Positions 24,122-45,616 are shown, numbered from the stretch's first letter. The stretch: DNA of 64,000 nt from Nitrosopumilus sp. (GCA_965249555.1 OZ252243.1:2112001-2176000), one strand, 5' to 3'. Notes: generated from the letters alone by a model not told the origin. Numbers and translations are program-made.

Positions 24122-24342
24122 CCTCCTATTTCTGAAATAACGTTTCCAGTGGTACGATTCCTGTATGTGAAGTTACTTTCTGGGCATCTCTTTGAGATAT
24201 CATATTTGCAACTTCAAGGAATAATTTTCATTGAAACCGTCTGTGATTTCAATTATACAATCTCACACCCATCCGCTGAGTCGGTTCTGAAATTATATCT
24301 CAGAATAAAACGGGTTTGGATGATATGGCTCAGTCAAAAAAA
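24101..24342 (-). promoter_or_regulatory. ~240-bp conserved structured upstream repeat R1 (T-tract, pseudoknot-like core, hairpins, SD, first codons)
   Basis: Full copies also at 25729-25969, 32282-32515, 34105-34338, 35782-36015, 37393-37629, 38370-38611, 39950-40186, 40927-41168, 42507-42739. Confidence 0.85.
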
Positions 24343-24354
24343 GATGCTGTATGT

Positions 24355-24819
24355 CTACAGCTTGTCTTCGATTTTCTTTAAGATACCTGTCATATCTTTG
24401 AGAGAATTTGATGTCTCTTTCTGAGATGATGCTATCTCTTTGAGAGAATTTGATGTCTCTTTCTGAGATGATGCTGTCTCTTTCTGAGATGATGCTATCT
24501 CTTTGAGAATTCCAGATATCTCTATATGGTTTTCTTTGAGAATTTTTGTATGGCTCTCAAGGATTTCATTTTGCTCGTTGAATCGCCTGTACAGCTTGTG
24601 TGCCACATCTCTTGTTGCAAGCATCATATAGACACCTACGACGCCGGCAATAATAAAGGCAGCTCCCAAGGCAATCAGCATTTCATTATATGGGGGCGTG
24701 ATTCCAAGTGCCAGAATACCTGCTCCCAGACACATTATAACAAACAACCAGTGGTTGCCTTTTGTGGTATCTTGTATTTGGGATGAAATCCTTCTTATCT
24801 GGTTTTTGGTATCTACCAC
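24355..24819 (-). CDS. Two-TM protein with heptad-repeat coiled-coil tail (family M1)
   Basis: TM pair, then SSQKE(I/T)A/SNSLKEI 21-bp repeats; 6 paralogs in window. Confidence 0.75.
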   Translation of the reverse strand: MVDTKNQIRRISSQIQDTTKGNHWLFVIMCLGAGILALGITPPYNEMLIALGAAFIIAGVVGVYMMLATRDVAHKLYRRFNEQNEILESHTKILKENHIEISGILKEIASSQKETASSQKETSNSLKEIASSQKETSNSLKDMTGILKKIEDKL

Positions 24820-24893
24820 TTGTAATTTTTATCTCCGTTGTTATCCCACATTATCCCAGTCATGTGTCTCATCTGTATGCTCCTCTTAAAAAA

Positions 24894-25127
24894 CTAAGAG
24901 GCATGTACAAGCTCTGATTCTGCAGATAGTTTCTGCAACATTTTTACTGCAATGACATGCGAGCATTCACCTCGAAACTTGAATCCCATACATTCGCATA
25001 TCTCATCATTTATGATGTATGATCTTCCAGGAGTGGATGCGTTTACCTGGTAGGTATCATCATCAATCTGAATGATGCATTTTGTGTCTATGAGATTCTG
25101 TGCCTTTTTCTCCGTGAATTCAGACAT
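24894..25127 (-). CDS. SWIM zinc-finger protein
   Basis: CECMGFKFRGECSHVIAV. Confidence 0.75.
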   Translation of the reverse strand: MSEFTEKKAQNLIDTKCIIQIDDDTYQVNASTPGRSYIINDEICECMGFKFRGECSHVIAVKMLQKLSAESELVHAS

Positions 25128-25177
25128 TACCCACATTGGATGAAGACGTATCAAGGTGGATTTCTGTCGTATCACTC

Positions 25178-25540
25178 TCATAGAGTTGTATAATCTCCAT
25201 CACACACTCGGGTTTCTAATGTTGCTCCTGCAAACCAATTACTTTTAGTTAGTTCTTGCAGCTGCTGTCCTACCTTGTTTTCAGATACTCCAGATGCTGA
25301 TTTGGCAGACCATGTGATTCCAAGTTCTCTTTGTGTGTGTCCGCATTTCTCCGGTCCGTTGAATCTGATTTCAGTTGGAGCAATTGTCGGATAGTTCGTA
25401 CCCATTCCGTCTGCAAGAACTACTCCAAGATGTCTTAGTGGTGTTACCATCTTTTTGAAATCCGTTGCAACTTTTGAGAATTTTCCCGCATCAAACTCTG
25501 GTGATACGTAATAGTAGTGAGTGTAACCCATTAGTTGCAC
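25178..25540 (-). CDS. Hypothetical mobile-element protein (MGYTHY...IRFNG type)
   Basis: 120-aa ORF conserved in 6 copies. Confidence 0.6.
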   Translation of the reverse strand: MQLMGYTHYYYVSPEFDAGKFSKVATDFKKMVTPLRHLGVVLADGMGTNYPTIAPTEIRFNGPEKCGHTQRELGITWSAKSASGVSENKVGQQLQELTKSNWFAGATLETRVCDGDYTTL

Positions 25541-25749
25541 TCTACACAGTTACATGACACTGCATGCTGTTCTGGTAATGAGGAATAGTATGCTTCATTT
25601 ACAATCTTTTCCTCATGACACTGTTGCAGGATTTCAAGTTGTTCTGAACTCCACCCCATGCTAACTATACACTTTGTATGAGAGAGGGGATTTTGTGAAT
25701 TGATTTCTGTGCTCTCACTTGCACTGTTTTGTTGGACCATTCGGTTCAA
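25531..25749 (-). CDS. Small Cys/His protein (H...C.C..C)
   Basis: First gene after repeat; 6 copies. Confidence 0.6.
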   Translation of the reverse strand: MNRMVQQNSASESTEINSQNPLSHTKCIVSMGWSSEQLEILQQCHEEKIVNEAYYSSLPEQHAVSCNCVECN

Positions 25750-25969
25750 CCTCCTATTTCTGAAATAACGTTTCCAGTGGTACGATTCCTGTATGTGAAA
25801 TTACTTTTTGAGCATCTCTTTGAGATGTCATATTTGCAACTTCAAGGAATAATTTTCATTGAAACCGTCTGTGATTTCAATTATGTCATCTCACACCCGT
25901 CCACTGAGTCGGTTCTGAAACTATGTTTCAAAATAAAACGGGTTTGGATGGTATGGCTCAGTCAAAAAA
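25729..25969 (-). promoter_or_regulatory. Conserved upstream repeat R2
   Basis: Near-identical to R1. Confidence 0.85.
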
Positions 25970-25985
25970 TGTGGTGTTTGAAAAC

Positions 25986-26423
25986 TCAGTCTTTGCTTTG
26001 TAGAATGTCTTTTATCTCGTTCTGAGATTTTGCCATCTCGTTCTGAGATTTTGCCATCTCGTTCTGAGATTTTACTATCTCGTTCAGAGATTCTGTAATG
26101 GATTGCAATGCCTTTATGATACTTGTGCCAATATTCATGTTTTCTTTGCCGACATCATATATTGCCTCTTTGATACTTGTGCCAATATCCATCGTAGTCC
26201 AAGACATTAACATACCTACGAACCCAACTATAATAAAGGCTATGCCTTCACTTAGCAGTCGTTTGTCTGTCAGTTGGCTTGTGATGGTTAGGAATGACCC
26301 AACTACTACCATTGCCACAAATATCATGTTTTGACGTCGTGTAAGACTGGTTCTTATTCTGTCTGTGGTTATTTTTTCCATTTTCTTTTTTGTAATGCTG
26401 CAAGCATCATACCTTCTCCACAT
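25986..26423 (-). CDS. Two-TM protein with SQNEMAK heptad repeats (family M2; start probably downstream at MEKIT)
   Basis: Paralog of 42756-43433. Confidence 0.7.
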   Translation of the reverse strand: MWRRYDACSITKKKMEKITTDRIRTSLTRRQNMIFVAMVVVGSFLTITSQLTDKRLLSEGIAFIIVGFVGMLMSWTTMDIGTSIKEAIYDVGKENMNIGTSIIKALQSITESLNEIVKSQNEMAKSQNEMAKSQNEIKDILQSKD

Positions 26424-26482
26424 CCAATCTGCCTGTCAGGTGCATTTGCACTGATATTGGATTTGAGAGGATTGTCAGGTCA
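26415..26482 (-). promoter_or_regulatory. Short variant of the structured leader motif (also 27114-27180, 43425-43492)
   Basis: Covarying stems; lies directly upstream of genes. Confidence 0.7.
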
Positions 26483-26527
26483 CAAAAAAAGGATTGTATG
26501 GTGTAAAAATCACCATTTAACATTTGG

Positions 26528-27100
26528 TTATACCAAATATTTTGAGTGAGCCCTTAATTGCATGAAAGCACAGTGCAGAATGTTATACATTGTGTTCTGG
26601 TCTCGCGTGTGTTGGTTTGAGGATACATGTAAAAGAATGGCTTGTAGTGTTTCAACTTTCTCATTTCTTTCAAACTCCCACAAATGCCTGAGGTCGGCTT
26701 TGAACAGATTTCTATAAAATCCTTCACCATTATCAAGTGTCTGATGGGCAGTCTCTATGTTGTTAAAGTCACCAGTGTCCATATATCCAGACCTTTTGGT
26801 TATCCCATCTGACCTTGCAATGATAAATCTGTTAAAGTCTGTATCCGGCTCTAACTGATCCCATGCAAATGCCTCAAACACTTTTATCCCATATGAAAGA
26901 CTGGATTCATCCCCTACGATTATGTTATCATAGTTGTAGAATTTTCTTATCTCTTCCAGACTGGATTTGTCTGGTTTTGATCCTGTTGCTATTAGTATTT
27001 TCCCACATCTCAAAGTCAACTCATCTTTGTTAGATATGTCTCTTAATGTCAATACTAAATCAAGGTTCTCACTGTATTCTGATTTGTTCATTTTTTTCAC
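26528..27100 (-). CDS. Hypothetical protein
   Basis: 190-aa ORF downstream of leader motif. Confidence 0.65.
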   Translation of the reverse strand: MKKMNKSEYSENLDLVLTLRDISNKDELTLRCGKILIATGSKPDKSSLEEIRKFYNYDNIIVGDESSLSYGIKVFEAFAWDQLEPDTDFNRFIIARSDGITKRSGYMDTGDFNNIETAHQTLDNGEGFYRNLFKADLRHLWEFERNEKVETLQAILLHVSSNQHTRDQNTMYNILHCAFMQLRAHSKYLV

Positions 27101-27345
27101 TTTTTATCTTCCTTCTCCACACTTGCCTGCCTGTCAGGTACTTTCGTACTGTTGCAAGATTTGAGAGGATTGTCAGGTCAGTCCCTAGGATGTGCTGAAT
27201 TGTGGTCGCATACGCAAAGTAAACCCACAACTCAATACACCTTCGGGTATTATGGAGCCTTTCTGTCGTTGTAAGATGAGTTCTGCATCATTTGGGAGAT
27301 GTCATAACTTTATCTTTGTAATTGTTCCAAAGTCTTCAGTAGACA

Positions 27346-28152
27346 TTAGTTCTCTATCTCTATTGGCGGGTTTTCTTTAGTGATATTTTCAGCATCACTT
27401 AACATTGCAGTTATTGCCTTTTGTACTCTGCTGAGAACCTTAAAGCATGCCCGTCCAACTTCTTCTGGAGAGTCAGTTTTTGCATATGTTGCGATATAAT
27501 TCCAGGTGTAGTTTTCTGAATCATATCCGTACATCTTTGCAAGTACACAAGCTCCCAACTGTGCGACTGTTTCTTGTTCTGGGTCTTGTTTTAGCTTTAG
27601 TTTGATATTTTTGTTATCATACCAGTGAACTAATTCGTGTAGAAATGTATCAGGAGCTTCGGTACTCAGTACAATCTCTTTTCTTTTTGGATCAATTGAA
27701 CCGTATTCTCCATGACGTGTGTTTTCCCATTTCACATCAATTCCATTTTTTGCTGCCAAGTCAAACAACGGAGGCAGAACTTTTGGGGCATATTCTTGCA
27801 GAGGTTCACCTTCTGTATCCTCATATCGAAATACAGGCATTCCCCTGAATCCAATCACTATTGTTTTGTCCTCTTCATTTTTGTCTTTGATTCTTTTTTG
27901 CATTGGAATCAATATGTATATTGCCTTGGAACCTTTTTTGACATGTCTTCTTACCTGCTCCCACTGCCTGTATCCTCTTGCATCAGTTGTTCCAGAGAAG
28001 AGCATTAGTACTTGGTTTCCCAAAGACCATGAGGATGATGGAATTTCTTCTGCACTGATGAATGCCTTTGCACATGTTTCTGCAAACTCTTTGTTGGAAA
28101 AGTGTTCTACAATGTCATTTAGAATAGCTGTTGCCTTTTCAGAATTCTTCAT
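27346..28152 (-). CDS. ardC: ArdC-like protein (ssDNA-binding N-domain plus zincin-like domain), putative anti-restriction
   Basis: WSLGNQVLM..GYRQWEQVRRHVKKGSKAIYILIP, VFRYEDTEG, HELVH, ETVAQLGA. Confidence 0.8.
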   Translation of the reverse strand: MKNSEKATAILNDIVEHFSNKEFAETCAKAFISAEEIPSSSWSLGNQVLMLFSGTTDARGYRQWEQVRRHVKKGSKAIYILIPMQKRIKDKNEEDKTIVIGFRGMPVFRYEDTEGEPLQEYAPKVLPPLFDLAAKNGIDVKWENTRHGEYGSIDPKRKEIVLSTEAPDTFLHELVHWYDNKNIKLKLKQDPEQETVAQLGACVLAKMYGYDSENYTWNYIATYAKTDSPEEVGRACFKVLSRVQKAITAMLSDAENITKENPPIEIEN

Positions 28153-28478
28153 TGTGATGTGTATATTTGATAGCTTCGAATTGAAGACCGGCTGTTTGTG
28201 TTATGCTCTATGAGATTGTCTTTGAGATCATATCCTAGACTCTGATTCTGTTTTGCATTGCAAAACAAAGTAGCGTCACAATCTTCTTCAAGGTACACAT
28301 ATTTGTCGTTTGTGTAACTGTATTTTGAGATTTTCTCGGCAATTCCCAAGGACTCTAGTTCAGATTGTAAGACTTTGAGCCATCCGTGACTTTGGTCTGA
28401 AAAGAAATGGTACTTTTCGTTTGTTTCTATTACTTTTTGTTTCATGTTTTTCCTCCTTAAAGGGACCATCTCACACAT
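28149..28478 (-). CDS. Conserved phage/plasmid-type hypothetical protein
   Basis: DQSHGWLKV..LGI..IS.YSY..YLEEDCDA. Confidence 0.65.
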   Translation of the reverse strand: MCEMVPLRRKNMKQKVIETNEKYHFFSDQSHGWLKVLQSELESLGIAEKISKYSYTNDKYVYLEEDCDATLFCNAKQNQSLGYDLKDNLIEHNTNSRSSIRSYQIYTSQ

Positions 28479-28553
28479 CCGTTCTGCTGAGTCAGCTGGT
28501 ATTATTATACCAGGATAACGGAGTTGGAGTGGTAGTCTCAGTCAAGAAAAAAA
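28469..28553 (-). promoter_or_regulatory. Diverged core of the conserved upstream repeat
   Basis: GCTGAGTC..CTCAGTC retained; different inner hairpin CTGGTAT-TATT-ATACCAG. Confidence 0.7.
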
Positions 28554-28613
28554 TTGGGGTTGTGGATAGATGTTCTGGTGTGTTTGTAACTACACACCGT
28601 CTCATCTGGTTTG

Positions 28614-29651
28614 TTATATTTTCTGACTCGCTGTTGGGACAGGAAGCGAGCTTGCAAAGGATTGTACTATATGCTGGTTCTTTTCTTTGTGGTCTTTTTT
28701 GGTTGGTAGATTACCATATTTGTAGTCCAGTCTCCTCAGTTCTGTACCGTCCCATTTCTTCTCAAGAGAGTCTGCCTTTCTTTTGTACACCTTGGACTGT
28801 CTTTTGGATGTATGATTCCATGAATCAATCATCTCTGCAGATAGGACTGGTGTTGTGTGGATGATGAATGCTTTTGTCTCTGCGTTGAACTGTCTGTCTT
28901 TGGCATCATCTGTTGGCTCTCGATTGTATTTTTTGAGAATCTCTAGTTTGTCAGAGTCTGTCAATGGTCTGTCTCCTTCACTGATTGCAGCAACAAAAAT
29001 CAGACTGCATGATAGTATGGGTCTGACCTGAACAGTCTTTACCTCATCACCGCTTGGAATTAATAGTAATTCCTCACTGTGTGTTTTTCCTGTTGTCTGT
29101 ATGGATGATATTCCAGATAACTTTGGAGTGATTCCGGTACTCTGGTATCTCCTTGGTCGGTGTGATAGAATTCTGTCAGTCCTTTCAGCTGCTCTGATGT
29201 CTTTTTTTGCAAATTCTATCTCCAGGAATTGCTCATCCCATGATGGTACGATACCAGTAGAGAATCTCTTTCTTTGTACAAGGTATCCTCCACAGACACA
29301 ACGAGTTATGTCTGCTGGTTGTTTCCAGGAATGGCATCTCTTGCAACAAGTTGCCTTTTCAGTTTTTATGGAATCCATGTCAACTGGCTGTACTTCCAAT
29401 GGATATGCTCCCTTGAATTTCTTCATTGGAATCTCAAATAAACAGAGTTTGCCGTCTTGAAGAACTGCTACTACACCCTCTTTGGCTCTGAATTGAATCA
29501 AAGCCTTGTTGGTACGGTCATATTTGACATGACCTCTGTACCCTTGGGATTCTAGTTTCTGCTCAAGGTAGTTCTTTACCAAAAGCAATTTTTGACTACT
29601 TGGTACATTTTTGATACTTGTACTGGTATTGTTTGAATTTTTGAAAACCAT
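28614..29651 (-). CDS. Unknown basic protein with Zn-finger-like CKRC..CVC (paralog of 44246-45289)
   Basis: 345-aa ORF, highly similar paralog in window. Confidence 0.8.
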   Translation of the reverse strand: MVFKNSNNTSTSIKNVPSSQKLLLVKNYLEQKLESQGYRGHVKYDRTNKALIQFRAKEGVVAVLQDGKLCLFEIPMKKFKGAYPLEVQPVDMDSIKTEKATCCKRCHSWKQPADITRCVCGGYLVQRKRFSTGIVPSWDEQFLEIEFAKKDIRAAERTDRILSHRPRRYQSTGITPKLSGISSIQTTGKTHSEELLLIPSGDEVKTVQVRPILSCSLIFVAAISEGDRPLTDSDKLEILKKYNREPTDDAKDRQFNAETKAFIIHTTPVLSAEMIDSWNHTSKRQSKVYKRKADSLEKKWDGTELRRLDYKYGNLPTKKDHKEKNQHIVQSFASSLPVPTASQKI

Positions 29652-29968
29652 TTGGCTTCATCTCCTTTTGCAAAAAACATACCGAAGTTGTAACATATGA
29701 TGTCTGGTTTCTAGTAGATGTTGTCATCCAGCTTAGCCTAGGCTAAGATTAAAAAAATACATGGATGTGATTGAATATCAATCTACTGTCTGTTATCTGA
29801 CAGACTGTGTTGCACTGAAAAAAGATTTCACGTGTCTGTAGTCTTTGTATGCTTTTGCTAGTTTGGTTGTATTTCTGTCAGATTTTATCCTGCCAGAACA
29901 GACGTCATTTCTGAAAATATCGTTTTTCATCTGGACGATTCTCATATGAGAATTTTTTTTACCAGTCG

Positions 29969-30050
29969 CACACCCATCCGCTGAGTCGGTTCTGAAACTG
30001 TGTTTCAAAATAAAATGGGTTTGGACTGTATGGCTCAGTCAAGAAAAAAA
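29969..30050 (-). promoter_or_regulatory. Core-only copy of conserved upstream repeat
   Basis: Direct sequence match. Confidence 0.8.
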
Positions 30051-30082
30051 TTGGATTTCTGTAAATTTCTTTACAGTTGGTT

Positions 30083-30838: not shown

Positions 30839-30906
30839 TGAGGGTCAGAACTTTTGCTGTCATCATTACTGATGTTCAGATCAACGCCGCTCTCATCATC
30901 CCCTCA
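30839..30906 (-). ncRNA. Box C/D-type guide sRNA, copy 1
   Basis: UGAGGG-G-AUGAUGA-GAGCGGCGUUGAU-CUGA-ACAUCAGUA-AUGAUGA-CAGCAAAAGUU-CUGA-CCCUCA. Confidence 0.85.
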
Positions 30907-31072
30907 TTATCAATCTAGAATGTTTTGAAATGTGTAAATTGGAGTTTTGTAGACTGCACTTGTACCCTCTGTCTGCTCCTCAACTGATGATATCATTCCG
31001 GGAATGTCTGCTGCAAGCAGTGCCGTAACACTTCTGGTTATGAGTTATATTGATGAAATGATATGAGAATAG

Positions 31073-31140
31073 TGAGGGTCAGAATATGGGGCTGTCATCA
31101 TTACTGATGTTCAGATCAACGCCGTTCTCATATCCCCTCA
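31073..31140 (-). ncRNA. Box C/D-type guide sRNA, copy 2 (C box has a 1-nt deletion)
   Basis: C box reads AUAUGA; D' guide GAACGGCGUUGAU; D guide CAGCCCCAUAUU. Confidence 0.7.
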
Positions 31141-31306
31141 TTATCAATCTAGAATGTTTTGAAATGTGTAAATTGGAGTTTTGTAGACTGCACTTGTACC
31201 CTCTGTCTGCTCCTCAACTGATGATATCATTCCGGGAATGTCTGCTGCAAGCAGTGCCGTAACACTTCTGGTTATGAGTTATATTGATGGAATGATATGA
31301 GAATAG

Positions 31307-31374
31307 TGAGGGTCAGAATATTGGCTGTCATCATTACTGATGTTCAGATCAACGCCGTTCTCATCATCCCCTCA
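31307..31374 (-). ncRNA. Box C/D-type guide sRNA, copy 3
   Basis: Perfect C, D', C', D boxes; D' guide GAACGGCGUUGAU; D guide CAGCCAAUAUU. Confidence 0.85.
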
Positions 31375-31540
31375 TTATCAATCTAGAATGTTTTGAAATG
31401 TGTAAATTGGAGTTTTGTAGACTGCACTTGTACCCTCTGTCTGCTCCTCAACTGATGATATCATTCCGGGAATGTCTGCTGCAAGCAGTGCCGTAACACT
31501 TCTGGTTATGAGTTATATTGATGGAATGATATGAGAATAG

Positions 31541-31608
31541 TGAGGGTCAGAACGGTTTTCTGTCATCATATTGATGTTCAGCTCAACGCCGCTCTCATCA
31601 TCCCCTCA
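31541..31608 (-). ncRNA. Box C/D-type guide sRNA, copy 4
   Basis: Perfect boxes; D' guide GAGCGGCGUUGAG; D guide CAGAAAACCGUU. Confidence 0.85.
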
Positions 31609-32285: not shown

Positions 32286-32515
32286 TCGGTTCAACCCCCT
32301 ATTTCTGAAATAACGTTTCCAGTAGTACAATTCCTGTATGTGAAATTACTTTTTGAACATCTCTTTGAGATATCCTGTTTGTAATTCCTAGGAATAATTT
32401 TCATTGAAACCGTTTGTGATTTCAATTATGTCATCTCACACCCATCCGCTGAGTCGGTTCTGAAACTATGTTTCAAAATAAAACGGGTTTGGATGGTATG
32501 GCTCAGTCAAAAAAA
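32282..32515 (-). promoter_or_regulatory. Conserved upstream repeat
   Basis: Near-identical to R1. Confidence 0.85.
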
Positions 32516-32527: not shown

Positions 32528-33046
32528 CTACAGCTTGTCTTCTATTCTCTTTAAGATACTTGTCATATCTTTGAGAGAATTTGATGTCTCTTTCTGAGAT
32601 GATGCTGTCTCTTTCTGAGATGATGCTATCTCTTTGAGAGAATTTGATGTCTCTTTCTGAGATGATGCTATCTCTTTGAGAGAATTTGATGTCTCTTTCT
32701 GAGATGATGCTATCTCTTTGAGAATTCCAGATGTCTCTATATGGTTTTCTTTGAGAATTTTTGTATGGCTCTCAAGGATTTCATTTTGCTCGTTGAATCG
32801 CCTGTACAGCTTGTGTGCCACATCTCTTGTTGCAAGCATCATATAGACACCTACGACGCCGGCAATAATAAAGGCAGCTCCCAAGGCAATCAGCATTTCA
32901 TTATATGGGGCGTGATTCCAAGTGCCAGAATACCTGCTCCCAGACACATTATAACAAACAACCAGTGGTTGCCTTTTGTGGTATCTTGTATTTGGGATGA
33001 AATCCTTCTTATCTGGTTTTTGATATCTACCACTTGTAATTTTCAT
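32528..33046 (-). pseudogene. Family M1 membrane protein, 1-bp frameshift
   Basis: G4 at 32907-32910 versus G5 in the other five copies. Confidence 0.65.
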
Positions 33047-33257: not shown

Positions 33258-33278
33258 CTGTATGCTCCTCTTAAAAAA

Positions 33279-33925: not shown

Positions 33926-34125
33926 TCTACACAGTTACATGACACTGCATGCTGTTCTGGTAATGAGGAATAGTATGCTTCATTTGCAATCTTTTCCTCA
34001 TGACATTGTTGTAGGATTTCAAGTTGTTCTGAACTCCATCCCATGCTAACTATACACTTTGTATGAGAGAGGGGATTTTGTTGTACATTTTTGATACTTG
34101 TATATTGTTGGACCATTCGGTTCAA
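33916..34125 (-). CDS. Small Cys/His protein
   Basis: Paralog of 25531-25749. Confidence 0.6.
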   Translation of the reverse strand: MNRMVQQYTSIKNVQQNPLSHTKCIVSMGWSSEQLEILQQCHEEKIANEAYYSSLPEQHAVSCNCVECN

Positions 34126-34350
34126 CCTCCTATTTCTGAAATAACGTTTCCAGTGGTACGATTCCTGTATGTGAAGTTACTTTTTGAGCATCTCTTTGAG
34201 ATGTCATATTTGTAACTTCAAGGAATTTGAAACCGTTTGTGATTTCAATTATACAATCTCACACCCGTCCGCTGAGTCGGTTCTGAAACTATGTTTCAAA
34301 ATAAAACGGGTTTGGATGGTATGGCTCAGTCAAAAAAAGATGCTGTATGT

Positions 34351-34878
34351 CTACAGCTTGTCTTCTATTCTCTTTAAGATACCTGTCATATCTTTGAGAG
34401 AATTTGATGTCTCTTTCTGAGATGATGCTGTCTCTTTCTGAGATGATGCTATCTCTTTGAGAGAATTTGATGTCTCTTTCTGAGATGATGCTATCTCTTT
34501 CTGAGATGATGCTATCTCTTTGAGAGAATTTGATGTCTCTTTCTGAGATGATGCTATCTCTTTGAGAATTCCAGATGTCTCTATATGGTTTTCTTTGAGA
34601 ATTTTTGTATGGCTCTCAAGGATTTCATTTTGCTCGTTGAATCGCCTGTACAGCTTGTGTGCCACATCTCTTGTTGCAAGCATCATATAGACACCTACGA
34701 CGCCGGCAATAATAAAGGCAGCTCCCAAGGCAATCAGCATTTCATTATATGGGGGCGTGATTCCAAGTGCCAGAATACCTGCTCCCAGACACATTATAAC
34801 AAACAACCAGTGGTTGCCTTTTGTGGTATCTTGTATTTGGGATGAAATCCTTCTTATCTGGTTTTTGATATCTACCAC
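34351..34878 (-). CDS. Family M1 membrane/coiled-coil protein (175 aa)
   Basis: Longest heptad tract. Confidence 0.75.
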   Translation of the reverse strand: MVDIKNQIRRISSQIQDTTKGNHWLFVIMCLGAGILALGITPPYNEMLIALGAAFIIAGVVGVYMMLATRDVAHKLYRRFNEQNEILESHTKILKENHIETSGILKEIASSQKETSNSLKEIASSQKEIASSQKETSNSLKEIASSQKETASSQKETSNSLKDMTGILKRIEDKL

Positions 34879-34955
34879 TTGTAATTTTCATCTCCGTTGT
34901 CTTTATCCCACATTATCCCAGTCATGTGTCTCATCTGTATGCTCATCTTAAAAAA

Positions 34956-35802: not shown

Positions 35803-36027
35803 CCTCCTATTTCTGAAATAACGTTTCCAGTGGTACGATTCCTGTATGTGAAGTTACTTTTTGAGCATCTCTTTGAGATGTCATATTTGTAACTTCAAGG
35901 AATTTGAAACCGTTTGTGATTTCAATTATACAATCTCACACCCGTCCGCTGAGTCGGTTCTGAAACTATGTTTCAAAATAAAACGGGTTTGGATGGTATG
36001 GCTCAGTCAAAAAAAGATGCTGTATGT

Positions 36028-36492
36028 CTACAGCTTGTCTTCTATTCTCTTTAAGATACTTGTCATATCTTTGAGAGAATTTGATGTCTCTTTCTGAGAT
36101 GATGCTGTCTCTTTCTGAGATGATGCTATCTCTTTGAGAGAATTTGATGTCTCTTTCTGAGATGATGCTATCTCTTTGAGAATTCCAGATGTCTCTATAT
36201 GGTTTTCTTTGAGAATTTTTGTATGGCTCTCAAGGATTTCATTTTGCTCGTTGAATCGCCTGTACAGCTTGTGTGCCACATCTCTTGTTGCAAGCATCAT
36301 ATAGACACCTACGACGCCGGCAATAATAAAGGCAGCTCCCAAGGCAATCAGCATTTCATTATATGGGGGCGTGATTCCAAGTGCCAGAATACCTGCTCCC
36401 AGACACATTATAACAAACAACCAGTGGTTGCCTTTTGTGGTATCTTGTATTTGGGATGAAATCCTTCTTATCTGGTTTTTGGTATCTACCAC
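36028..36492 (-). CDS. Family M1 membrane/coiled-coil protein (154 aa)
   Basis: Paralog. Confidence 0.75.
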   Translation of the reverse strand: MVDTKNQIRRISSQIQDTTKGNHWLFVIMCLGAGILALGITPPYNEMLIALGAAFIIAGVVGVYMMLATRDVAHKLYRRFNEQNEILESHTKILKENHIETSGILKEIASSQKETSNSLKEIASSQKETASSQKETSNSLKDMTSILKRIEDKL

Positions 36493-36566
36493 TTGTAATT
36501 TTCATCTCCGTTGTTATCCCACATTATCCCAGTCATGTGTCTCATCTGTATGCTCCTCTTAAAAAA

Positions 36567-37413: not shown

Positions 37414-37633
37414 CCTCCTATTTCTGAAATAACGTTTCCAGTGGTACGATTCCTGTATGTGAAGTTACTTTTTGAGCATCTCTTTGAGATGTCATATTTG
37501 TAACTTCAAGGAATAATGTTGAAAATCTATCTTGATTTTCCAATCCATCTCACATCCATCCGCTGAATCGGTTCTGAAACTATGTTTCAAAATAAAACGG
37601 GTTTGGATGGTATGGCTCAGTCAAAAAAATATT

Positions 37634-38064: not shown

Positions 38065-38094
38065 TTTCTTGCTGTTTTACATCCTAAAAAAAGA

Positions 38095-38298: not shown

Positions 38299-38623
38299 TA
38301 GTATTCAACCTCTACTGTACCCTTTGTATGAAAGACGTGATTTTGTCGTACATTTTTGATACTTGTATATTGTTGGACCATTCGGTTCAACCTCCTATTC
38401 CTGAAATAACGTTTCCAGTAGTACGATTCCTGTATGTGAAATTACTTTCAGAACATCTCTTTGAGATATCCTGTTTGTAACTTCAAGGAATAATTTTCAT
38501 TGAAACCGTCTGTGATTTCAATTATGTCATCTCACATCCATCCGCTGAGTCGGTTCTGAAACTATGTTTCAAAATAAAATGGGTTTGGATGGTATGGCTC
38601 AGTCAAAAAAAGATGCTGTATGT

Positions 38624-39046
38624 CTACAGCTTGTCTTCTATTCTCTTTAAGATACTTGTCATATCTTTGAGAGAATTTGATGTTTCTTTCTGAGATGATG
38701 CTGTCTCTTTCTGAGATGATGCTATCTCTTTGAGAATTCCAGATATCTCTATATGGTTTTCTTTGAGAATTTTTGTATGGCTCTCAAGGATTTCATTTTG
38801 CTCGTTGAATCGCCTGTACAGCTTGTGTGCCACATCTCTTGTTGCAAGCATCATATAGACACCTACGACGCCGGCAATAATAAAGGCAGCTCCCAAGGCA
38901 ATCAGCATTTCATTATATGGGGGCGTGATTCCAAGTGCCAGAATACCTGCTCCCAGACACATTATAACAAACAACCAGTGGTTGCCTTTTGTGGTATCTT
39001 GTATTTGGAATGAAATCCTTCTTATCTGGTTTTTGATATCTACCAC
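38624..39046 (-). CDS. Family M1 membrane/coiled-coil protein (140 aa)
   Basis: Paralog. Confidence 0.75.
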   Translation of the reverse strand: MVDIKNQIRRISFQIQDTTKGNHWLFVIMCLGAGILALGITPPYNEMLIALGAAFIIAGVVGVYMMLATRDVAHKLYRRFNEQNEILESHTKILKENHIEISGILKEIASSQKETASSQKETSNSLKDMTSILKRIEDKL

Positions 39047-39970: not shown

Positions 39971-40190
39971 CCTCCTATTTCTGAAATAACGTTTCCAGTG
40001 GTACGATTCCTGTATGTGAAGTTACTTTTTGAGCATCTCTTTGAGATGTCATATTTGTAACTTCAAGGAATAATGTTGAAAATCTATCTTGATTTTCCAA
40101 TCCATCTCACATCCATCCGCTGAATCGGTTCTGAAACTATGTTTCAAAATAAAACGGGTTTGGATGGTATGGCTCAGTCAAAAAAATATT

Positions 40191-40406
40191 TCAGATCTGT
40201 TGTAGAAGATCTTCTTTTGAGATTTCAGCTTGCTCCAGGATTAGTTTCAAGGTGGATTCTCTGATTGGAGAATGCCTGGGTACTGGAACAATATTGCCAT
40301 CTTTGTTTTGAAGTATGATGTGGCTTCCTCTTTGTCTATTTACAGAATACCCAAATTTGCTTAATGCCTTTATGACATCACGCCAATTGTGGTTTCTTAG
40401 ACTCAA
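40191..40406 (-). CDS. hicA: HicA-family toxin (copy 2)
   Basis: Same protein as 37634-37849. Confidence 0.9.
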   Translation of the reverse strand: MSLRNHNWRDVIKALSKFGYSVNRQRGSHIILQNKDGNIVPVPRHSPIRESTLKLILEQAEISKEDLLQQI

Positions 40407-40621
40407 TTTGGAATCTCTACAATTATTTTCTGATCTGGTTTTGCTTTTTCTTTAATGGACTCTAGAACCAGAGAAATGACTTCTTTCATGTTTGATTCTA
40501 GCTGCTCCATTGTATCTCCTTCACTAATTGCTGCAGGTAATTCAAGGCATCGTCCTGTGTATCCACCTTCTGATGATTTGATTACCTGGATAGTGAACTT
40601 TCTTGTGTCCATGCTTTTCAT
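40403..40621 (-). CDS. hicB: HicB-family antitoxin (copy 2)
   Basis: Same protein as 37846-38064. Confidence 0.9.
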   Translation of the reverse strand: MKSMDTRKFTIQVIKSSEGGYTGRCLELPAAISEGDTMEQLESNMKEVISLVLESIKEKAKPDQKIIVEIPN

Positions 40622-40651
40622 TTTCTTGCTGTTTTACATCCTAAAAAAAGA

Positions 40652-40855
40652 TTAGGAATCAAGAATTTTGTTCAATTCCTGCCTTATCTTTTTGAGCGTC
40701 TTTTTGTGCTTTCTCTGCCTGATATGATCCTGTGCAACCCCTAGGCTCTTGCATGCATCAGACCATTCTCCTCGCTTTTCACATTCCAGGTTTCTTCCTG
40801 TGAATTCCCAATCCTCACAGTTCCAGTCAGAGACTGAGATTGAATATTCTGTCAT
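40652..40855 (-). CDS. Small hypothetical protein
   Basis: Duplicate of 38095-38298. Confidence 0.55.
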   Translation of the reverse strand: MTEYSISVSDWNCEDWEFTGRNLECEKRGEWSDACKSLGVAQDHIRQRKHKKTLKKIRQELNKILDS

Positions 40856-41180
40856 TAGTATTCAACCTCTACTGTACCCTTTGTATGAAAGACGTGATTT
40901 TGTCGTACATTTTTGATACTTGTATATTGTTGGACCATTCGGTTCAACCTCCTATTCCTGAAATAACGTTTCCAGTAGTACGATTCCTGTATGTGAAATT
41001 ACTTTCAGAACATCTCTTTGAGATATCCTGTTTGTAACTTCAAGGAATAATTTTCATTGAAACCGTCTGTGATTTCAATTATGTCATCTCACATCCATCC
41101 GCTGAGTCGGTTCTGAAACTATGTTTCAAAATAAAATGGGTTTGGATGGTATGGCTCAGTCAAAAAAAGATGCTGTATGT

Positions 41181-41603
41181 CTACAGCTTGTCTTCTATTC
41201 TCTTTAAGATACTTGTCATATCTTTGAGAGAATTTGATGTTTCTTTCTGAGATGATGCTGTCTCTTTCTGAGATGATGCTATCTCTTTGAGAATTCCAGA
41301 TATCTCTATATGGTTTTCTTTGAGAATTTTTGTATGGCTCTCAAGGATTTCATTTTGCTCGTTGAATCGCCTGTACAGCTTGTGTGCCACATCTCTTGTT
41401 GCAAGCATCATATAGACACCTACGACGCCGGCAATAATAAAGGCAGCTCCCAAGGCAATCAGCATTTCATTATATGGGGGCGTGATTCCAAGTGCCAGAA
41501 TACCTGCTCCCAGACACATTATAACAAACAACCAGTGGTTGCCTTTTGTGGTATCTTGTATTTGGAATGAAATCCTTCTTATCTGGTTTTTGATATCTAC
41601 CAC
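41181..41603 (-). CDS. Family M1 membrane/coiled-coil protein (140 aa)
   Basis: Paralog. Confidence 0.75.
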   Translation of the reverse strand: MVDIKNQIRRISFQIQDTTKGNHWLFVIMCLGAGILALGITPPYNEMLIALGAAFIIAGVVGVYMMLATRDVAHKLYRRFNEQNEILESHTKILKENHIEISGILKEIASSQKETASSQKETSNSLKDMTSILKRIEDKL

Positions 41604-41680
41604 TTGTAATTTTCATCTCCGTTGTCTTTATCCCACATTATCCCAGTCATGTGTCTCATCTGTATGCTCCTCTTAAAAAA

Positions 41681-41914
41681 CTAAGAGACATGTACAAGCT
41701 CTGGTTCCTTGGACTGTTTCTGCAACATTTTTACTGCAATGACATGCGAGCATCCCCCTCGAAACTTGAATCCCATACATTCGCATATCTCATCATTTAT
41801 GATGTATGATCTTCCAGGAGTGGATGCGTTTACCTGGTAGGTATCATCATCAATCTGAATGATGCATTTTGTGTCTATGAGATTCTGTGCCTTTTTCTCT
41901 GTGAATTCAGACAT
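41681..41914 (-). CDS. SWIM zinc-finger protein
   Basis: Paralog. Confidence 0.75.
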   Translation of the reverse strand: MSEFTEKKAQNLIDTKCIIQIDDDTYQVNASTPGRSYIINDEICECMGFKFRGGCSHVIAVKMLQKQSKEPELVHVS

Positions 41915-41964
41915 TGCCCACATTGGATGAAGACGTATCAAGGCGGATTTCTGTCGTATCACTC

Positions 41965-42327
41965 TCATAGAGTTGTACAATCTCCATCACACACTCGGGT
42001 TTCTAATGTTGCTCCTGCAAACCAATTACTTTTAGTTAGTTCTTGCAGCTGCTGTCCTACCTTGTTTTCAGATACTCCAGATGCTGATTTGGCAGGCCAT
42101 GTGATTCCAAGTTCTCTTTGTGTGTGTCCGCATTTCTCCGGTCCGTTGAATCTGATTTCAGTTGGAGTAATTGTCGGATAGTTCTCACCCATTCTGTCTG
42201 CAAGAACTACTCCAAGATGTCTTAGTGGTGTTACCATCTTTTTGAAACCCGTTGCAACTTTTGAGAATTTTTCCGCATCAAACTCTGGTGATACGTAATA
42301 GTAGTGAGTGTAACCCATTAGTTGCAC
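41965..42327 (-). CDS. MGYTHY-type hypothetical protein
   Basis: Paralog. Confidence 0.6.
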   Translation of the reverse strand: MQLMGYTHYYYVSPEFDAEKFSKVATGFKKMVTPLRHLGVVLADRMGENYPTITPTEIRFNGPEKCGHTQRELGITWPAKSASGVSENKVGQQLQELTKSNWFAGATLETRVCDGDCTTL

Positions 42328-42527
42328 TCTACACAGTTACATGACACTGCATGCTGTTCTGATAATGAGGAACAGTATGCTTCATTTGCAATCTTTTCCT
42401 CATGACACTGTTGCAGGATTTCAAGTTGTTCTGAACTCCACCCCATGCTAACTATACACTTTGTATGAGAGAGGGGATTTTGTTGTACATTTTTGATACT
42501 TGTATATTGTTGGACCATTCGGTTCAA
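42318..42527 (-). CDS. Small Cys/His protein
   Basis: Paralog. Confidence 0.6.
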   Translation of the reverse strand: MNRMVQQYTSIKNVQQNPLSHTKCIVSMGWSSEQLEILQQCHEEKIANEAYCSSLSEQHAVSCNCVECN

Positions 42528-42755
42528 CCTCCTATTGCTGAAATAACGTTTCCAGTGGTACGATTCCTGTATGTGAAGTTACTTTTTGAGCATCTCTTTG
42601 AGATGTCATATTTGTAACTTCAAGGAATTTGAAACCGTTTGTGATTTCAATTATACAATCTCACACCCGTCCGCTGAGTCGGTTCTGAAACTATGTTTCA
42701 AAATAAAACGGGTTTGGATGGTATGGCTCAGTCAAAAAATGTGGTGTTTGAAAAC

Positions 42756-43433
42756 TCAGTCTTTGTTTTGTAGAATGTCTTTTACCTCGTTCAGAGATTT
42801 TGCCATCTCATTTTGAGATTTTGCCATCTCATTTTGAGATTTTGCAATATTGTTTTGTAGAATGTCTTTTACCTCGTTCAGAGATTTTGCCATCTCGTTC
42901 TGAGATTTTGCAATGGATTCCAATGCCGTCAGGTTTTCTTTGCCGACATCATATATTGCCTCTTTGATACTTGTGCCAATATTCATGTTTTCTTTGCCGA
43001 CATCATATATTGCCTCTTTGATACTTGTGCCAATATTCATGTTTTCTTTGCCGACATCATATATTGCCTCTTTGATACTTGTGCCAATATTCATGTTTTC
43101 TTTGCCGACATCATATATTGCCTCTTTGATACTTGTGCCAATATTCATGTTTTCTTTGCCGACATCATATATTGCCTCTTTGATACTTGTGCCAATATCC
43201 ATCGTAGTCCAAGACATTAACATACCTACGAATCCAACTATAATAAAGGCTATGCCTTCACTTAGCAGTCGTTTGTCTGTCAGTTGGCTTGTGATGGTTA
43301 GGAATGACCCAACTACTACCATTGCCACGAATATCATGTTTTGACGTCGTGTAAGACTGATTCTTATTTTCTCTGTTGTTATTTTTTCCATTTTCTTTTT
43401 TGTAATGCTGCAAGCATCATACCTTCTCCACAT
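42756..43433 (-). CDS. Family M2 two-TM protein with five 18-aa (54-bp) repeats and heptad repeats
   Basis: IGTSIKEAIYDVGKEN(MN) x5; SQNEMAK repeats. Confidence 0.75.
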   Translation of the reverse strand: MWRRYDACSITKKKMEKITTEKIRISLTRRQNMIFVAMVVVGSFLTITSQLTDKRLLSEGIAFIIVGFVGMLMSWTTMDIGTSIKEAIYDVGKENMNIGTSIKEAIYDVGKENMNIGTSIKEAIYDVGKENMNIGTSIKEAIYDVGKENMNIGTSIKEAIYDVGKENLTALESIAKSQNEMAKSLNEVKDILQNNIAKSQNEMAKSQNEMAKSLNEVKDILQNKD

Positions 43434-43495
43434 CCAATCTGCCTGTCAGGTGCATTTGCACTGATATTGGATTTGAGAGGATTGTCAGGTCAAAG

Positions 43496-43765
43496 TCAGT
43501 CCTTGTGATATACTGACTTGTGGTCGCATACTCGCATCAAGTCTATTGTATTTTCAGAATATCTTATGTTGTATAGTATTCTGTATTTTCCTACGTTGTA
43601 TGCAAATACTCGCATGTCTGGTTTGTAGACTCCCAAATTTGCAGGATTTTCAGAGTTTTCTAGTTCTTGGATTGCCTAGTTTATTCTTTGTTTGATTTAA
43701 GAATCAAGGTGCTTGTGTTGTTTGAGAAACTTTGCCTTTCTTGTGATATTCCAAGTTTCATTCAA
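43496..43765 (-). pseudogene. RelE/ParE-family toxin with two in-frame stops (not in ORF track)
   Basis: Manual translation: WNITRKAKFLKQHKHLDS*IKQRIN*AIQEL..VGKYRILYNI..IDLMRVCDHKSVY. Confidence 0.75.
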
Positions 43766-43767
43766 GA

Positions 43768-44046
43768 TTATTCTTTGAGTTCTTTCATGAATTCGTCAAA
43801 TGACAGTGTCTTCTTTCCATCATCACTACTTCTAAACTCTATAATGTCTAATACCTCTTCTGGAATTAGATCATCTTCATGCAGTGATTTTAGGTGTCCC
43901 TCAAAAGTATCTGATCTGTAGTTGCCTTTCTCAAAATCTTTTCTGATTATCTCCAGCTTGTCTTCTGGGAAATGCTCAAAGGGATTTACAGTTCTTGTCT
44001 TAGACATGATTCTTGATTGAATTCTCTTGCTTTTAAGACTGTCCAA
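43768..44046 (-). CDS. Probable antitoxin partner
   Basis: Directly upstream of the RelE-like gene; ends KKTLSFDEFMKEL. Confidence 0.55.
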   Translation of the reverse strand: MDSLKSKRIQSRIMSKTRTVNPFEHFPEDKLEIIRKDFEKGNYRSDTFEGHLKSLHEDDLIPEEVLDIIEFRSSDDGKKTLSFDEFMKELKE

Positions 44047-44245
44047 TCTTTTCGAGTTTGTGGATTATTTTTTGTACCTGCTCTTTTATGATACAGTCAA
44101 CTGTGTTTCCAGAACCCAGATTTGATTTCTGTACAAGTTGTGCATATGCATACTTTGTGGCCTTTCTTGCAACTGATTCCACTAGAACCTCAAAAAACGG
44201 TTCGTCCTGGAATTGTTTCAATGCAGATTCTTCAGCAGTCATCAT
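44033..44245 (-). CDS. Small hypothetical protein
   Basis: 70-aa ORF coupled to neighbours. Confidence 0.55.
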   Translation of the reverse strand: MMTAEESALKQFQDEPFFEVLVESVARKATKYAYAQLVQKSNLGSGNTVDCIIKEQVQKIIHKLEKIGQS

Positions 44246-45289
44246 CTATACTTTCTGATTCGCTGTTGGGACAGGAAGCGAGCTTGCAAAGGATTGTACC
44301 ATATGCTGGTTCTTTTCTTTGCGGTATTTTTTGGTTGGTAGATGACCATATTTGTAGTCCAGTCTCCTCAGTTCTGTACCATCCCATTTCTTCTCAAGAG
44401 AGTCTGCCTTTCTTCTGTACACTTTGGATTGTCTTTTGGATGTATGATTCCATGAATCAATCATCTCTGCAGATAGGACTGGCATTGTATGGTTGATGAA
44501 TGCTTTTGTCTCTGAGTCAAACTGTCTGTCTTTGGCATCATCTGTTGGCTCTCGATTGTATTTTTTGAGAATCTCTAGTTTGTCAGAGTCTGTCAATGGT
44601 CTGTCTCCTTCACTGATTGCAGCAACAAAAATCAGACTGCATGATAGTATGGGTCTGACCTGAACAGTCTTTACATCATTACCGCTTGGAATCAGCAACA
44701 ATTCCTCTTGGTGTAAATCTACCATACTTGTAGATGACATTCCAGCTAGTTTGCGTGTGATTCCAGTACTGTGGTATCTCCTTGGTCGGTGTGATAGAAT
44801 TCTGTCAGTCTTTATTGCTGCTCTGATGTCTTTTTTTGCAAATTCTGTCTCCAGGAATTGCTCATCCCATGATGGTACGATACCAGTAGTGAATCTCTTT
44901 CTTTGTACAAGGTATCCTCCACAGACACAACGAGTTATGTCTGCTGGTTGTTTCCAGGAATGGCATCTCTTGCAACAAGTTGCCTTTTCAGTTTTTATGG
45001 AATCCATGTCCACTGATTGCACTTCCAATGGATATGCTCCCTTGAATTTCTTCATTGGCATCTCAAATATGCAGAGTTTGCCGTCTTTGAGAACTGCTAC
45101 GGTTCCCTCTTGGACCCTGTATTGTATTAGAGCCTTGTTGGTTTGGTCATATTTGATATGACCTCTGTATCCTACAGATTCCAGTTTCTGCTCAAGGTAG
45201 TTCTTTGCCAAGAGTAGTTTCTGGCTTTGTACATTTTTTACACTTGTACATGTGTTTTGAATTTTTTTGCTTTGTGTTTTTCGCATCAT
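44246..45289 (-). CDS. Unknown basic Zn-finger-like protein (paralog of 28614-29651)
   Basis: 347 aa; CKRC..CVC. Confidence 0.8.
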   Translation of the reverse strand: MMRKTQSKKIQNTCTSVKNVQSQKLLLAKNYLEQKLESVGYRGHIKYDQTNKALIQYRVQEGTVAVLKDGKLCIFEMPMKKFKGAYPLEVQSVDMDSIKTEKATCCKRCHSWKQPADITRCVCGGYLVQRKRFTTGIVPSWDEQFLETEFAKKDIRAAIKTDRILSHRPRRYHSTGITRKLAGMSSTSMVDLHQEELLLIPSGNDVKTVQVRPILSCSLIFVAAISEGDRPLTDSDKLEILKKYNREPTDDAKDRQFDSETKAFINHTMPVLSAEMIDSWNHTSKRQSKVYRRKADSLEKKWDGTELRRLDYKYGHLPTKKYRKEKNQHMVQSFASSLPVPTANQKV

Positions 45290-45557
45290 AGTATTTTACC
45301 TCACCTAAATGGTGGTCTCTTCTCAAATGCTGCACTAATACAGATTGTAACTGATCTGTCCGTAGATAATCGATGTCGTCACCAGAGTATAGCTTGCGCT
45401 AGTATGAAAAAATAATTTCTGGTGTGAATATATTCCTCATCATTCAATGTCGGGAATCTATTCCTGTTGCTTCATCCTTTTTACGATGAAACAAATGATA
45501 CTGCTGTGCGGACTGGTTGTTCTCTTTGATGTTGTTGTATTTGAGAAAATTCTTTAT

Positions 45558-45616
45558 CCCTCATACCTGCTCGCTGAGTCGATTTCTTTGCAGGGTTGGA
45601 GATTATATCTCAGTTT
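45558..45616 (-). promoter_or_regulatory. Minimal diverged copy of the structured leader core
   Basis: CCTGC/GCAGG and CTGAG/CTCAG stems in the same interleaved order. Confidence 0.55.

Follow-up and report, generated by a model that had tools for sequence, protein, structure and literature searches.

In a 64,000-nt stretch of the genome of Nitrosopumilus sp. (GCA_965249555.1 OZ252243.1:2112001-2176000), hereafter the window, a motif of ~80 nt recurs along a mobile element in front of its cargo genes. By comparative sequence analysis, we show that the motif has a conserved, strand-specific, predicted pseudoknotted fold at the boundaries of expression units, and that it represents a new predicted RNA family on integrative-conjugative-type elements of Nitrosopumilaceae. 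To our knowledge, ammonia-oxidising archaea have yielded few structured RNAs, and none, so far as we could find, comes from their mobile elements. We propose, with a probability of roughly 40%, that the motif acts in cis as RNA punctuation, which would create and/or protect the 5′ end of the downstream RNA. The motif is also a specific, searchable marker for this element family in Nitrosopumilaceae genomes.

Fold and covariation of the motif

The predicted fold is built on a long imperfect stem that runs from the outer helix P0 through a conserved core to P2. In the core, YCAAA lies opposite UGUG-N-R, forming C-G, A-U, A.G, and A-U pairs with one bulged base. The stem closes a three-way junction with the variable hairpin P3 and the 3-bp mini-stem P4, and covariation backs each of P2, P3, and P4. 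The 5′ tail of the motif (UGA followed by CUGAG or CCUG) pairs with the loop of P4 (A followed by CUCAG or CAGG) to form the pseudoknot helix P1. About 25 positions, located in the junctions and the core, are near-invariant. A preliminary description of the motif, made from the sequence alone, had drawn P1, P2, and the inner hairpin P3. All three are recovered and covary, the hairpin being absent from the sequence type that we call C, but the drawing is incomplete in that it left out P0, P4, and the core pairing. The conserved GA and CRR that it listed are present and flank P1b, the strand of P1 in the P4 loop, where they pair as the covarying stem P4. The conserved UC(C)AA and URUG(G)AG are likewise present, opposed in a helix that extends outward as the covarying P0.

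The fold was evaluated on an alignment of 150 model-aligned hits, 114 of which are distinct. In this alignment, which is fitted to the nested helices and holds many kindred copies that inflate the counts, 92.3% of 2685 pair cells are standard-paired, compared with 71.1% after shuffling (0 of 500 shuffles reach the observed value), so the covariation noted in the window is kept in the wider set. Pairing drops to 31–48% when the partners are slid by 1–3 columns. Both sides have changed in 23 of the 27 pairs among the 114 distinct copies. All five pairs of P0 show double changes (for example CCAUC/GAUGG, CAGUC/GACUG, and CGCC/GGCG), and the column pairs of P4 alternate between U-A (53), C-G (45), and other combinations (13) at 103-112, and between C-G (99), U-A (9), and U-G (3) at 102-113.

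P1 and P4 are absent from the search model and therefore provide independent tests of pairing. Jointly, they are 89.5% paired, compared with 82.6% after shuffling (0 of 500) and 23–48% after sliding. When P1 is parsed by hand in the 114 distinct copies, 92 are fully paired, 15 have one mismatch, and 7 are worse or lack the helix. Eight fully complementary versions of P1 occur, including CUGAG/CUCAG, CCUG/CAGG, CUGGG/CCCAG, CCGAG/CUCGG, and CUGG/CCAG, and three of the eight contain a G-U wobble. In addition, for 10 diverse copies, minimum free energy (MFE) folds computed with RNAfold recover P0-core-P2-P3 in all and P4 in eight. MAFFT, run on all types together, failed to align C, D, and E correctly, so model-based alignments were adopted. 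Readings of the motif as a K-turn, a bulge-helix-bulge splice motif, a hammerhead, or a programmed frameshift, or with an outer helix between the U-run and an A-run, were dropped on inspection, as their registers or conserved bases do not fit.

Wobble pairs indicate which strand folds. Within the nested helices, read on the gene-sense strand, G-U or U-G combinations occur 135 times versus 41 times for A-C or C-A; the overall counts are 146 and 68. G-U exceeds A-C in 19 of the 27 pair columns, is lower in 5, and is tied in 3, and the largest A-C count is, by our reading, an alignment artefact of the 4-bp variant of P1. Therefore, the gene-sense strand is the one that folds, which fits an RNA and disfavours a folded template strand. 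This bias speaks against the alternative of a single-stranded DNA (ssDNA) element, which the preliminary description had raised beside an RNA; for a fold of the template strand, which an ssDNA promoter requires, the reverse bias would be expected.

Copies in the window and in related genomes

Two search models were used: R1, built from sequence types A and B, and R2, rebuilt from 47 hits. R2 recovers exactly the 16 copies first noticed, all on the minus strand between 24250 and 45618 (E 8.5e-21 to 4.3e-4; Table 1, coordinates counted from the first letter of the window), and no other match in the window at E ≤ 0.05. The copies fall into five types (A, 11 copies; B; C; D, two copies; E), not the three subtypes initially described. 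The five copies of types B, C, D, and E differ at most paired positions. The 24-43 kb region is made of duplicated 1.6-2.6 kb cassettes with four small genes each, so the 11 type-A copies are near-identical, and the window alone therefore offers few independent comparisons.

A strict descriptor allowing no mismatch, run on both strands of the whole 2,230,439-base genome, gives 10 matches, all within the 16 copies; the six copies that it misses are those with a wobble or mismatch. An IUPAC pattern gives 10 reverse-strand and no forward-strand matches, and the same pattern reversed as a control gives none on either strand. A loose descriptor proved non-specific (1995 matches versus 1154 on the reversed sequence), and an R1 match at 46081-46154 (E 0.32) was dropped because it lies antisense in an actin-like gene. 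Four contig-only sequencing runs compared with the window show presence and strain variants. Joints in these runs at the edges of motif or T-run, among them 28553>29967 and 26487>29966, match over only 20-25 letters on each side at 90% likeness, most likely reflect the shared repeat, and were not used.

The motif is confined to one family in the genomes sampled. Of 60 other genomes of the genus, R1 finds it in seven, and it finds none in 40 genomes from 19 other families. With R2, it is found in 19 of 150 other genomes of the genus, where the copies are arrayed with up to 25 matches per genome; in 7 of 150 genomes of a family-wide draw, all in four other genera; and, in a class-wide draw, in 9 of 80 genomes of the same family and none of 70 genomes from 11 other families. 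Pattern matches in public genomes come mostly from Nitrosopumilus records, the others from Nitrosarchaeum and Nitrososphaerota. A pattern match is present in 29 public-contig stretches, of which 14 were scored by the model and 11 confirmed; the three matches in Clostridia, Spirochaetota, and Paraglaciecola records all failed. In IMG/VR, one contig carries a confirmed copy (65.6 bits), and a second viral pattern matched two contigs, neither of which the model confirmed.

The motif was taken to be undescribed, and database searches bear this out. At gathering score, Rfam 15 has no match anywhere in the window. At E ≤ 10 over 24000-46000, it gives 36 weak matches, none covering a motif copy; the nearest, CRISPR-DR56 (E 8.9), is at chance level and touches the 3′ tail of two copies. 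No description of the motif was found in the literature on thaumarchaeal conjugative elements, archaeal exonuclease-resistant RNA, or Nitrosopumilus pseudoknots, and a term search of PMC6563490, which treats thaumarchaeal integrative-conjugative elements, gave no hit for promoter, pseudoknot, or ssDNA.

Table 1 Motif copies and other located features of the window (aa, amino acids; ORF, open reading frame; T7, run of seven T)
Feature	Coordinates	Strand	Remarks
Motif, type A	24250-24338	-	R2 93.8 bits; P1 CUGAG/CUCAG; T7 at 24336-24342 just upstream; then 149-aa and 143-aa ORFs
Motif, type A	25878-25966	-	R2 95.3 bits; UGG replaces CGG after P1b
Motif, type D	26405-26484	-	R2 32.9 bits and descriptor match; P1 CCUG/CAGG, P2 UCCAAU/AUUGGA; T7 at 26484-26490; 145-aa membrane/repeat ORF downstream
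Motif, type E	27104-27182	-	R2 29.1 bits, missed by R1; P1 CCUG/CAGG, P2 CUUGC/GCAAG, P3 GUAC-GAAA-GUAC; no T-run; 190-aa ORF downstream
Motif, type B	28459-28546	-	R2 60.4 bits; P2 UCCGUU/AACGGA, P3 CUGGUAU/AUACCAG; T7 at 28547-28553; downstream AAGGAGG and AUG, 109-aa ORF, then ArdC-like 268-aa ORF
Motif, type A variant	29955-30043	-	R2 95.1 bits; P2 CCCAU/AUGGG, P0 CAGUC/GACUG, bulge C
Motif, type A	32423-32511	-	R2 96.1 bits
Motif, type A, reference copy	34246-34334	-	R2 99.2 bits; T7 at 34332-34338; MFE fold P0-core-P2-P3-P4, z -2.82
Motif, type A	35923-36011	-	R2 99.2 bits; identical to 34246-34334 copy
Motif, type A	37537-37625	-	R2 87.1 bits; G-U wobble in P1, C-A mismatch in P2
Motif, type A	38519-38607	-	R2 92.9 bits
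Motif, type A	40094-40182	-	R2 87.1 bits; duplicate of 37537-37625 copy
Motif, type A	41076-41164	-	R2 92.9 bits; duplicate of 38519-38607 copy
Motif, type A	42648-42736	-	R2 99.2 bits
Motif, type D	43415-43494	-	R2 35.1 bits; no T-run, directly after ORF end (…GACUGAC); then 225-aa ORF
Motif, type C	45548-45618	-	R2 45.3 bits; no P3 hairpin; P2 CCUGC/GCAGG; first copy of array
Orphan 5′ half, type-C-like	45750-45790	-	P1a-like, UCCAAC, without 3′ half; read by eye
Second structured leader domain	34096-34245	-	Between type-A motif and AGGAGG/AUG of 69-aa ORF
VirD4/TraG-like ATPase	49996-52572		Pfam scan
VirB4/TraG-P-loop-like ATPase	52590-54446		Pfam scan
ArdC-like gene	27346-28152		Pfam scan
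Actin/ParM-like gene	45852-46961	+	Pfam scan
TBP homologue, divergent, 202 aa	48411-49019	-	PF00352, E 3.6e-8, 33.6 bits versus cut-off 22.9
Surface protein, 1904 aa	15257-20971	-	Ig-like and fn3 repeats; flanks array
DDE_3 transposase gene (insertion-sequence type)	2497-3054		Flanks array
IS240/rve transposase gene (insertion-sequence type)	6388-6885		Flanks array
IS66 transposase gene (insertion-sequence type)	8603-9952		Flanks array
N6/N4 DNA methylase	7523-8407		Flanks array
C/D-box small RNA genes	30845-31601, 45679-45731	-	Rfam below gathering score, E 0.009-1.4
Paralogous membrane/coiled-coil ORFs	24355-24819, 32528-33046, 34351-34878, 36028-36492, 38624-39046, 41181-41603	-	
T6 runs without motif	33273-33278, 34950-34955, 36561-36566	-	Inside cassettes, right after SWIM-like gene; also at parallel sites
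54-nt tandem repeat, 5 copies	42875-43202		Inside 225-aa ORF after type-D motif

Sequences downstream of the motif

The motif sits before almost every cargo gene on the element and, in relatives, also before tRNA genes. It is always the 5′-most module of an expression unit, and what follows it differs between types. In type B and many relatives, AAGGAGG and then AUG follow 10–25 nt after P0b. In type D, a small hairpin and an A-rich stretch lie ahead of the start codon; P0b was considered as a Shine-Dalgarno sequence for this type and rejected, because homologous units start further downstream, behind the small hairpin. In type A, a second structured leader domain of ~100 nt is present after every copy. 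For this domain, RNAalifold predicts 22 pairs from 12 copies in 7 genomes, 16 with compensatory changes. Its outer stem is UUCCU/AGGAA, the CAAAG loop of its hairpin is invariant, and a CGUAC..CUGGAAACGUUA block is conserved; AGGAGG and AUG come next.

In relatives, tRNA genes begin 0–5 nt after the motif. In the arrays of two relatives, all nine Rfam tRNA hits start at the end of a motif hit, and ARAGORN finds tRNA-Ile and, in another genus, tRNA-Asp directly after the motif. Tandem units of motif, tRNA, and T5 run are present in three relatives (G165, L057 18383-19861 and L058 1111-1888; G181, L066 1004-1091; G224, L104 1586-1658). The tRNAs of G165 measure ~102 nt, contain an intron-like insert, and differ from copy to copy in the variable arm; they are missed by ARAGORN and score 42-45 bits with the Rfam tRNA model. 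The motif is thus always 5′-most whatever follows, and therefore points to an RNA 5′ end or to early transcription, not to translation.

Sequences upstream of the motif

The preliminary description placed the motif after a gene end or T-tract and ahead of the next unit, and the flanks agree. At least five consecutive T are present within 20 nt upstream in 94 of 107 distinct flanks, and an ORF ends 0–39 nt upstream in 87 of 107. The run, usually T6-8, follows the upstream stop codon, and 0–5 nt separate its end from the invariant UGA in front of P1a. Upstream of the run lies an A/C-rich stretch with a G fraction of at most ~0.1. For comparison, of 1034 host ORFs with 200 aa or more, only 118 have six or more T within 40 nt of the stop codon, and host T-runs are preceded by sequence rich in A/T, not in A/C. 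Therefore, the box together with the T-run is a specific module.

The T-run is absent from 13 of the 107 flanks, most of which, as we read them, appear to follow a stop codon within a few nt. It is also absent from the copy on the GC-rich viral contig, which follows a stop codon. In the type E copy, the conserved UGA itself, by our reading, doubles as the stop codon of a small upstream ORF. A TATA-like sequence, TATTTTAAG, lies ~35 nt upstream of P1a in the type C copy. In general, the interval -38..-18 from the motif start shows no excess of A/T-only runs (22 of 107 flanks, compared with 16-28 of 107 in other position windows).

Proposed function

In the mechanism that we propose, the cargo units would be transcribed largely as read-through RNA. 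The motif would then either cleave itself at its conserved 5′ edge, between UGA and C, or, as a compact knot, stop 5′-to-3′ exonucleolytic decay after cleavage at the U-run. As a result, promoter-poor cargo genes and tRNAs would become separate, stable RNAs. An activity that could cut at U-runs has been described: according to PMC8716108, aCPSF1/FttA binds U-tracts and cuts downstream, and the thaumarchaeal orthologues behave alike; according to PMC11616081, it then degrades RNA 5′-to-3′. A more far-reaching proposal, possible but doubtful, is that the motif founds a new RNA class, catalytic or mechanically resistant: it would be a self-cleaving ribozyme of a new kind or, for the first time in a prokaryotic mobile element, a knot that blocks exonucleases, and would split the read-through transcripts of thaumarchaeal conjugative elements. 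If true, it would define a promoter-independent punctuation system for cargo arrays that yields separate stable mRNAs, tRNAs, and small RNAs, would explain how archaeal conjugative elements express long promoter-poor arrays, and would provide a new tool-like RNA.

Several observations weigh against RNA punctuation. Fold energies are only modestly better than those of shuffled sequences (z -0.32 to -2.82 in the 10 diverse copies). No known ribozyme family in Rfam matches, and the C after P1b is no obvious catalytic base, in that it pairs within P4 and is U in the copy at 25878-25966. In PMC11616081, FttA cleavage is placed 22 nt behind the polymerase, so the knot would be unformed when the FttA torpedo starts. 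A direct anti-torpedo role is therefore kinetically doubtful, and the distance favours post-transcriptional protection or self-cleavage. In addition, the A/C-rich box with its T-run resembles host tRNA promoters, in which AAAC or AGAC is followed by TTTTTAGA 25-29 nt before tRNA +1 (B recognition element, BRE, and TATA box), and the element encodes a homologue of TBP. The T-run ends 16–22 nt before the conserved CAAA; were it a TATA box, transcription would start near CAAA inside the motif, and the transcripts would lack P1a and P0a. Untranscribed P1a and P0a are irreconcilable with their covariation; therefore, an RNA containing the full motif would have to exist, at least by read-through from upstream. 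The flanks without a T-run, the viral copy, the separate TATA-like box of type C, and the gap of 0–5 nt between T-run and motif, which varies without compensation, likewise argue for a full-length RNA. The T-run may serve as a promoter alongside the RNA role.

Among the alternatives, a regulatory leader survives best, although we consider it unlikely. Such a leader would bind an element or host protein or a small ligand and switch all cargo units together, for example by toggling between P1, P4, and P0 and so acting on processing, stability, or translation, and the motif would then define a regulon of these elements. The near-invariant junction and core positions are aptamer-like, P0b lies 0–25 nt from the start signals in types B, D, and E, one leader common to many units suggests co-regulation, and the element has its own transcription-factor-like gene. 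However, the cargo consists of tRNAs and unrelated genes with no coherent ligand pathway, a variable expression platform is not evident, and in type A ~140 nt, including a further structured domain, separate the motif from the start codon.

It is improbable that the released motif is itself the product, a stable small RNA present in abundance that would serve in trans as decoy or sponge of an RNA-binding or defence factor of the host. An RNase P cut in the motif-tRNA units would free a motif RNA of ~85 nt, and the compact fold and 16-25 copies per element would suit such a role, but the strict position at the 5′ end of units and the fusion to downstream leaders argue for a role in cis, and a target is not known.

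We give an equally small chance to a processive antitermination RNA (put-like) or anti-FttA element that would enable read-through of the T-runs between units. The motif does lie 0–5 nt behind a T6-8 run in 94 of the 107 flanks, runs of this kind are rare after host ORFs, and no canonical TATA box lies upstream. However, the motif would be transcribed only after the T-run that it has to suppress, PMC11616081 puts the FttA cut 22 nt behind the polymerase, and the motif persists where the T-run is absent.

An ssDNA element of conjugative transfer, whether a priming (ssi-type) site, an ssDNA promoter, or an attC-like recombination site at cassette boundaries, is very improbable. The carrier encodes VirD4/TraG-like and VirB4-like ATPases and an ArdC-like gene, and the motif lies between cassettes in one orientation, its nested P0-core-P2-P3 stem loosely resembling an attC hairpin. 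Against this, the G-U bias marks the gene-sense strand and not the one that would fold in an ssDNA promoter, attC has nothing that corresponds to P1 and P4, and the abutting tRNA 5′ ends point to transcription. Pfam scans of 30 of the window ORFs found no tyrosine recombinase or integron integrase. For such thaumarchaeal elements, PMC6563490 reports no relaxase and suggests transfer of double-stranded DNA.

Least probable of all is a mainly double-stranded promoter, which every kind of unit needs, with the A/C-rich box and T-run as BRE and TATA box, perhaps for the TBP of the element, a start at CAAA, 16–22 nt after the run, and only secondary complementarity. Of five relatives checked, four have TBP-like genes at 3-30 kb upstream of their arrays and in the same orientation. 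Against a promoter of this kind, the covariation of P1a and P0a with P1b and P0b would be unexplained, the spacing varies without compensation, 13 of 107 flanks and the viral copy lack the T-run, and the box differs from the BRE regions of the host in being poor in G and rich in C.

Comparison with known systems

On the features tested, the motif falls outside the families of exonuclease-resistant RNAs (xrRNAs), hepatitis delta virus (HDV)-like ribozymes, attC sites, and Frpo, and its predicted layout would work most like the first two.

The xrRNAs of flaviviruses and plant viruses are compact three-way junctions whose 5′ strand is tied back by a pseudoknot where the downstream fragment begins. 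The motif likewise has a three-way junction and a pseudoknotted 5′ strand at the would-be start of the downstream RNA. It differs in that the predicted partner of the 5′ tail is a hairpin loop (P4) and not the junction, and no second pseudoknot is seen. It has no Rfam xrRNA match, and is DNA-encoded and multi-copy in an archaeal host.

HDV-like ribozymes, including the tRNA-linked ‘theta’ ribozymes, and hatchet ribozymes self-cleave at their own 5′ edge. The HDV-like fold is a nested double pseudoknot that has a P1 of ~6-7 bp, a P1.1, and a catalytic C in the unpaired J4/2. The motif shares the strand order P1a-P2a-hairpin-P1b-P2b, backed by covariation, and resembles HDV-like, theta, and hatchet ribozymes in being multi-copy on mobile elements, tied to no fixed gene partner, tRNA-linked, and conserved at its 5′ boundary. 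However, its P1 is 4-5 bp, there is no P1.1 and no P4/J4-2 region with a free catalytic C, and only 3 nt (C-R-G), paired in P4, separate P1b from P2b. In addition, the motif has P0, the core, and the loop-tail pairing, lies upstream of tRNAs and not downstream, and gives no covariance-model match.

Integron attC sites fold as ssDNA into a purely nested hairpin with R′′/R′ boxes of the form RYYYAAC / GTTRRRY. Like these sites, the motif is structured, lies between promoter-less cassettes in one orientation, conserves shape more than sequence, and has a variable terminal hairpin within conserved paired boxes. Unlike these sites, its core, YCAAA(C) opposite UGUG-N-R, fails the R-box consensus, it contains the crossing helix P1, it abuts tRNA and mRNA starts, and the Pfam scans of 30 window ORFs revealed no integron integrase. 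The likeness to Frpo and ssi signals, which belong to the leading regions of conjugative plasmids, is in the repeated folded elements, in one orientation, before anti-restriction-type genes on a conjugative element; Frpo, however, is a long promoter-mimicking hairpin in the template strand, whereas the motif is a small pseudoknotted junction with wobble bias on the sense strand. Archaeal BRE/TATA promoters, which have an A/T-rich box ~26 nt upstream of the start site, also stand before every unit, with the likeness to host tRNA promoters given above, but a promoter needs no covariation between segments 40-60 bp apart, and the motif persists without the T-run.

The element, its host, and neighbouring genes

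The archaeal host implied in the preliminary description is supported by an archaeal small-subunit rRNA at 1455.8 bits. mcrA was not found in the genome, which indicates that the host is no methanogen. The G+C content is 34.4% in the genome versus 37-40% in the element. In its predicted genes, the element matches the thaumarchaeal integrative-conjugative elements of PMC6563490. The window contains no TFB gene; the host genome has seven elsewhere.

The cassette is composed of genes for 69 aa, 120 aa, a SWIM-like zinc-finger ORF (77-99 aa), and a membrane/coiled-coil ORF, and is repeated six times at 88-100% identity. The membrane/coiled-coil ORFs contain in-frame amino-acid tandem repeats (KEIASSQKETSNSL) whose copy number varies. 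The T6 runs inside the cassettes are followed by AAGA, resembling the host TATA form TTTTTAGA, and may be internal promoters or terminators. The ORF downstream of the other type-D copy is related to the 225-aa ORF that holds the 54-nt tandem repeat.

The C/D-box small RNAs of the element form a tandem array of 234 nt, in which three units are textbook examples, each having C, D′, C′, and D boxes and a terminal stem, and the C box of the fourth is degenerate. The D guides vary between units, and no rRNA or motif target stood out when the guides were compared with the genome at ≤1 mismatch. Another unit is located between the orphan 5′ half, which it directly follows, and the type-C motif a short way downstream. 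In one relative (G172), a type-C-like copy is likewise preceded by the 3′ end of a C/D-box small RNA.

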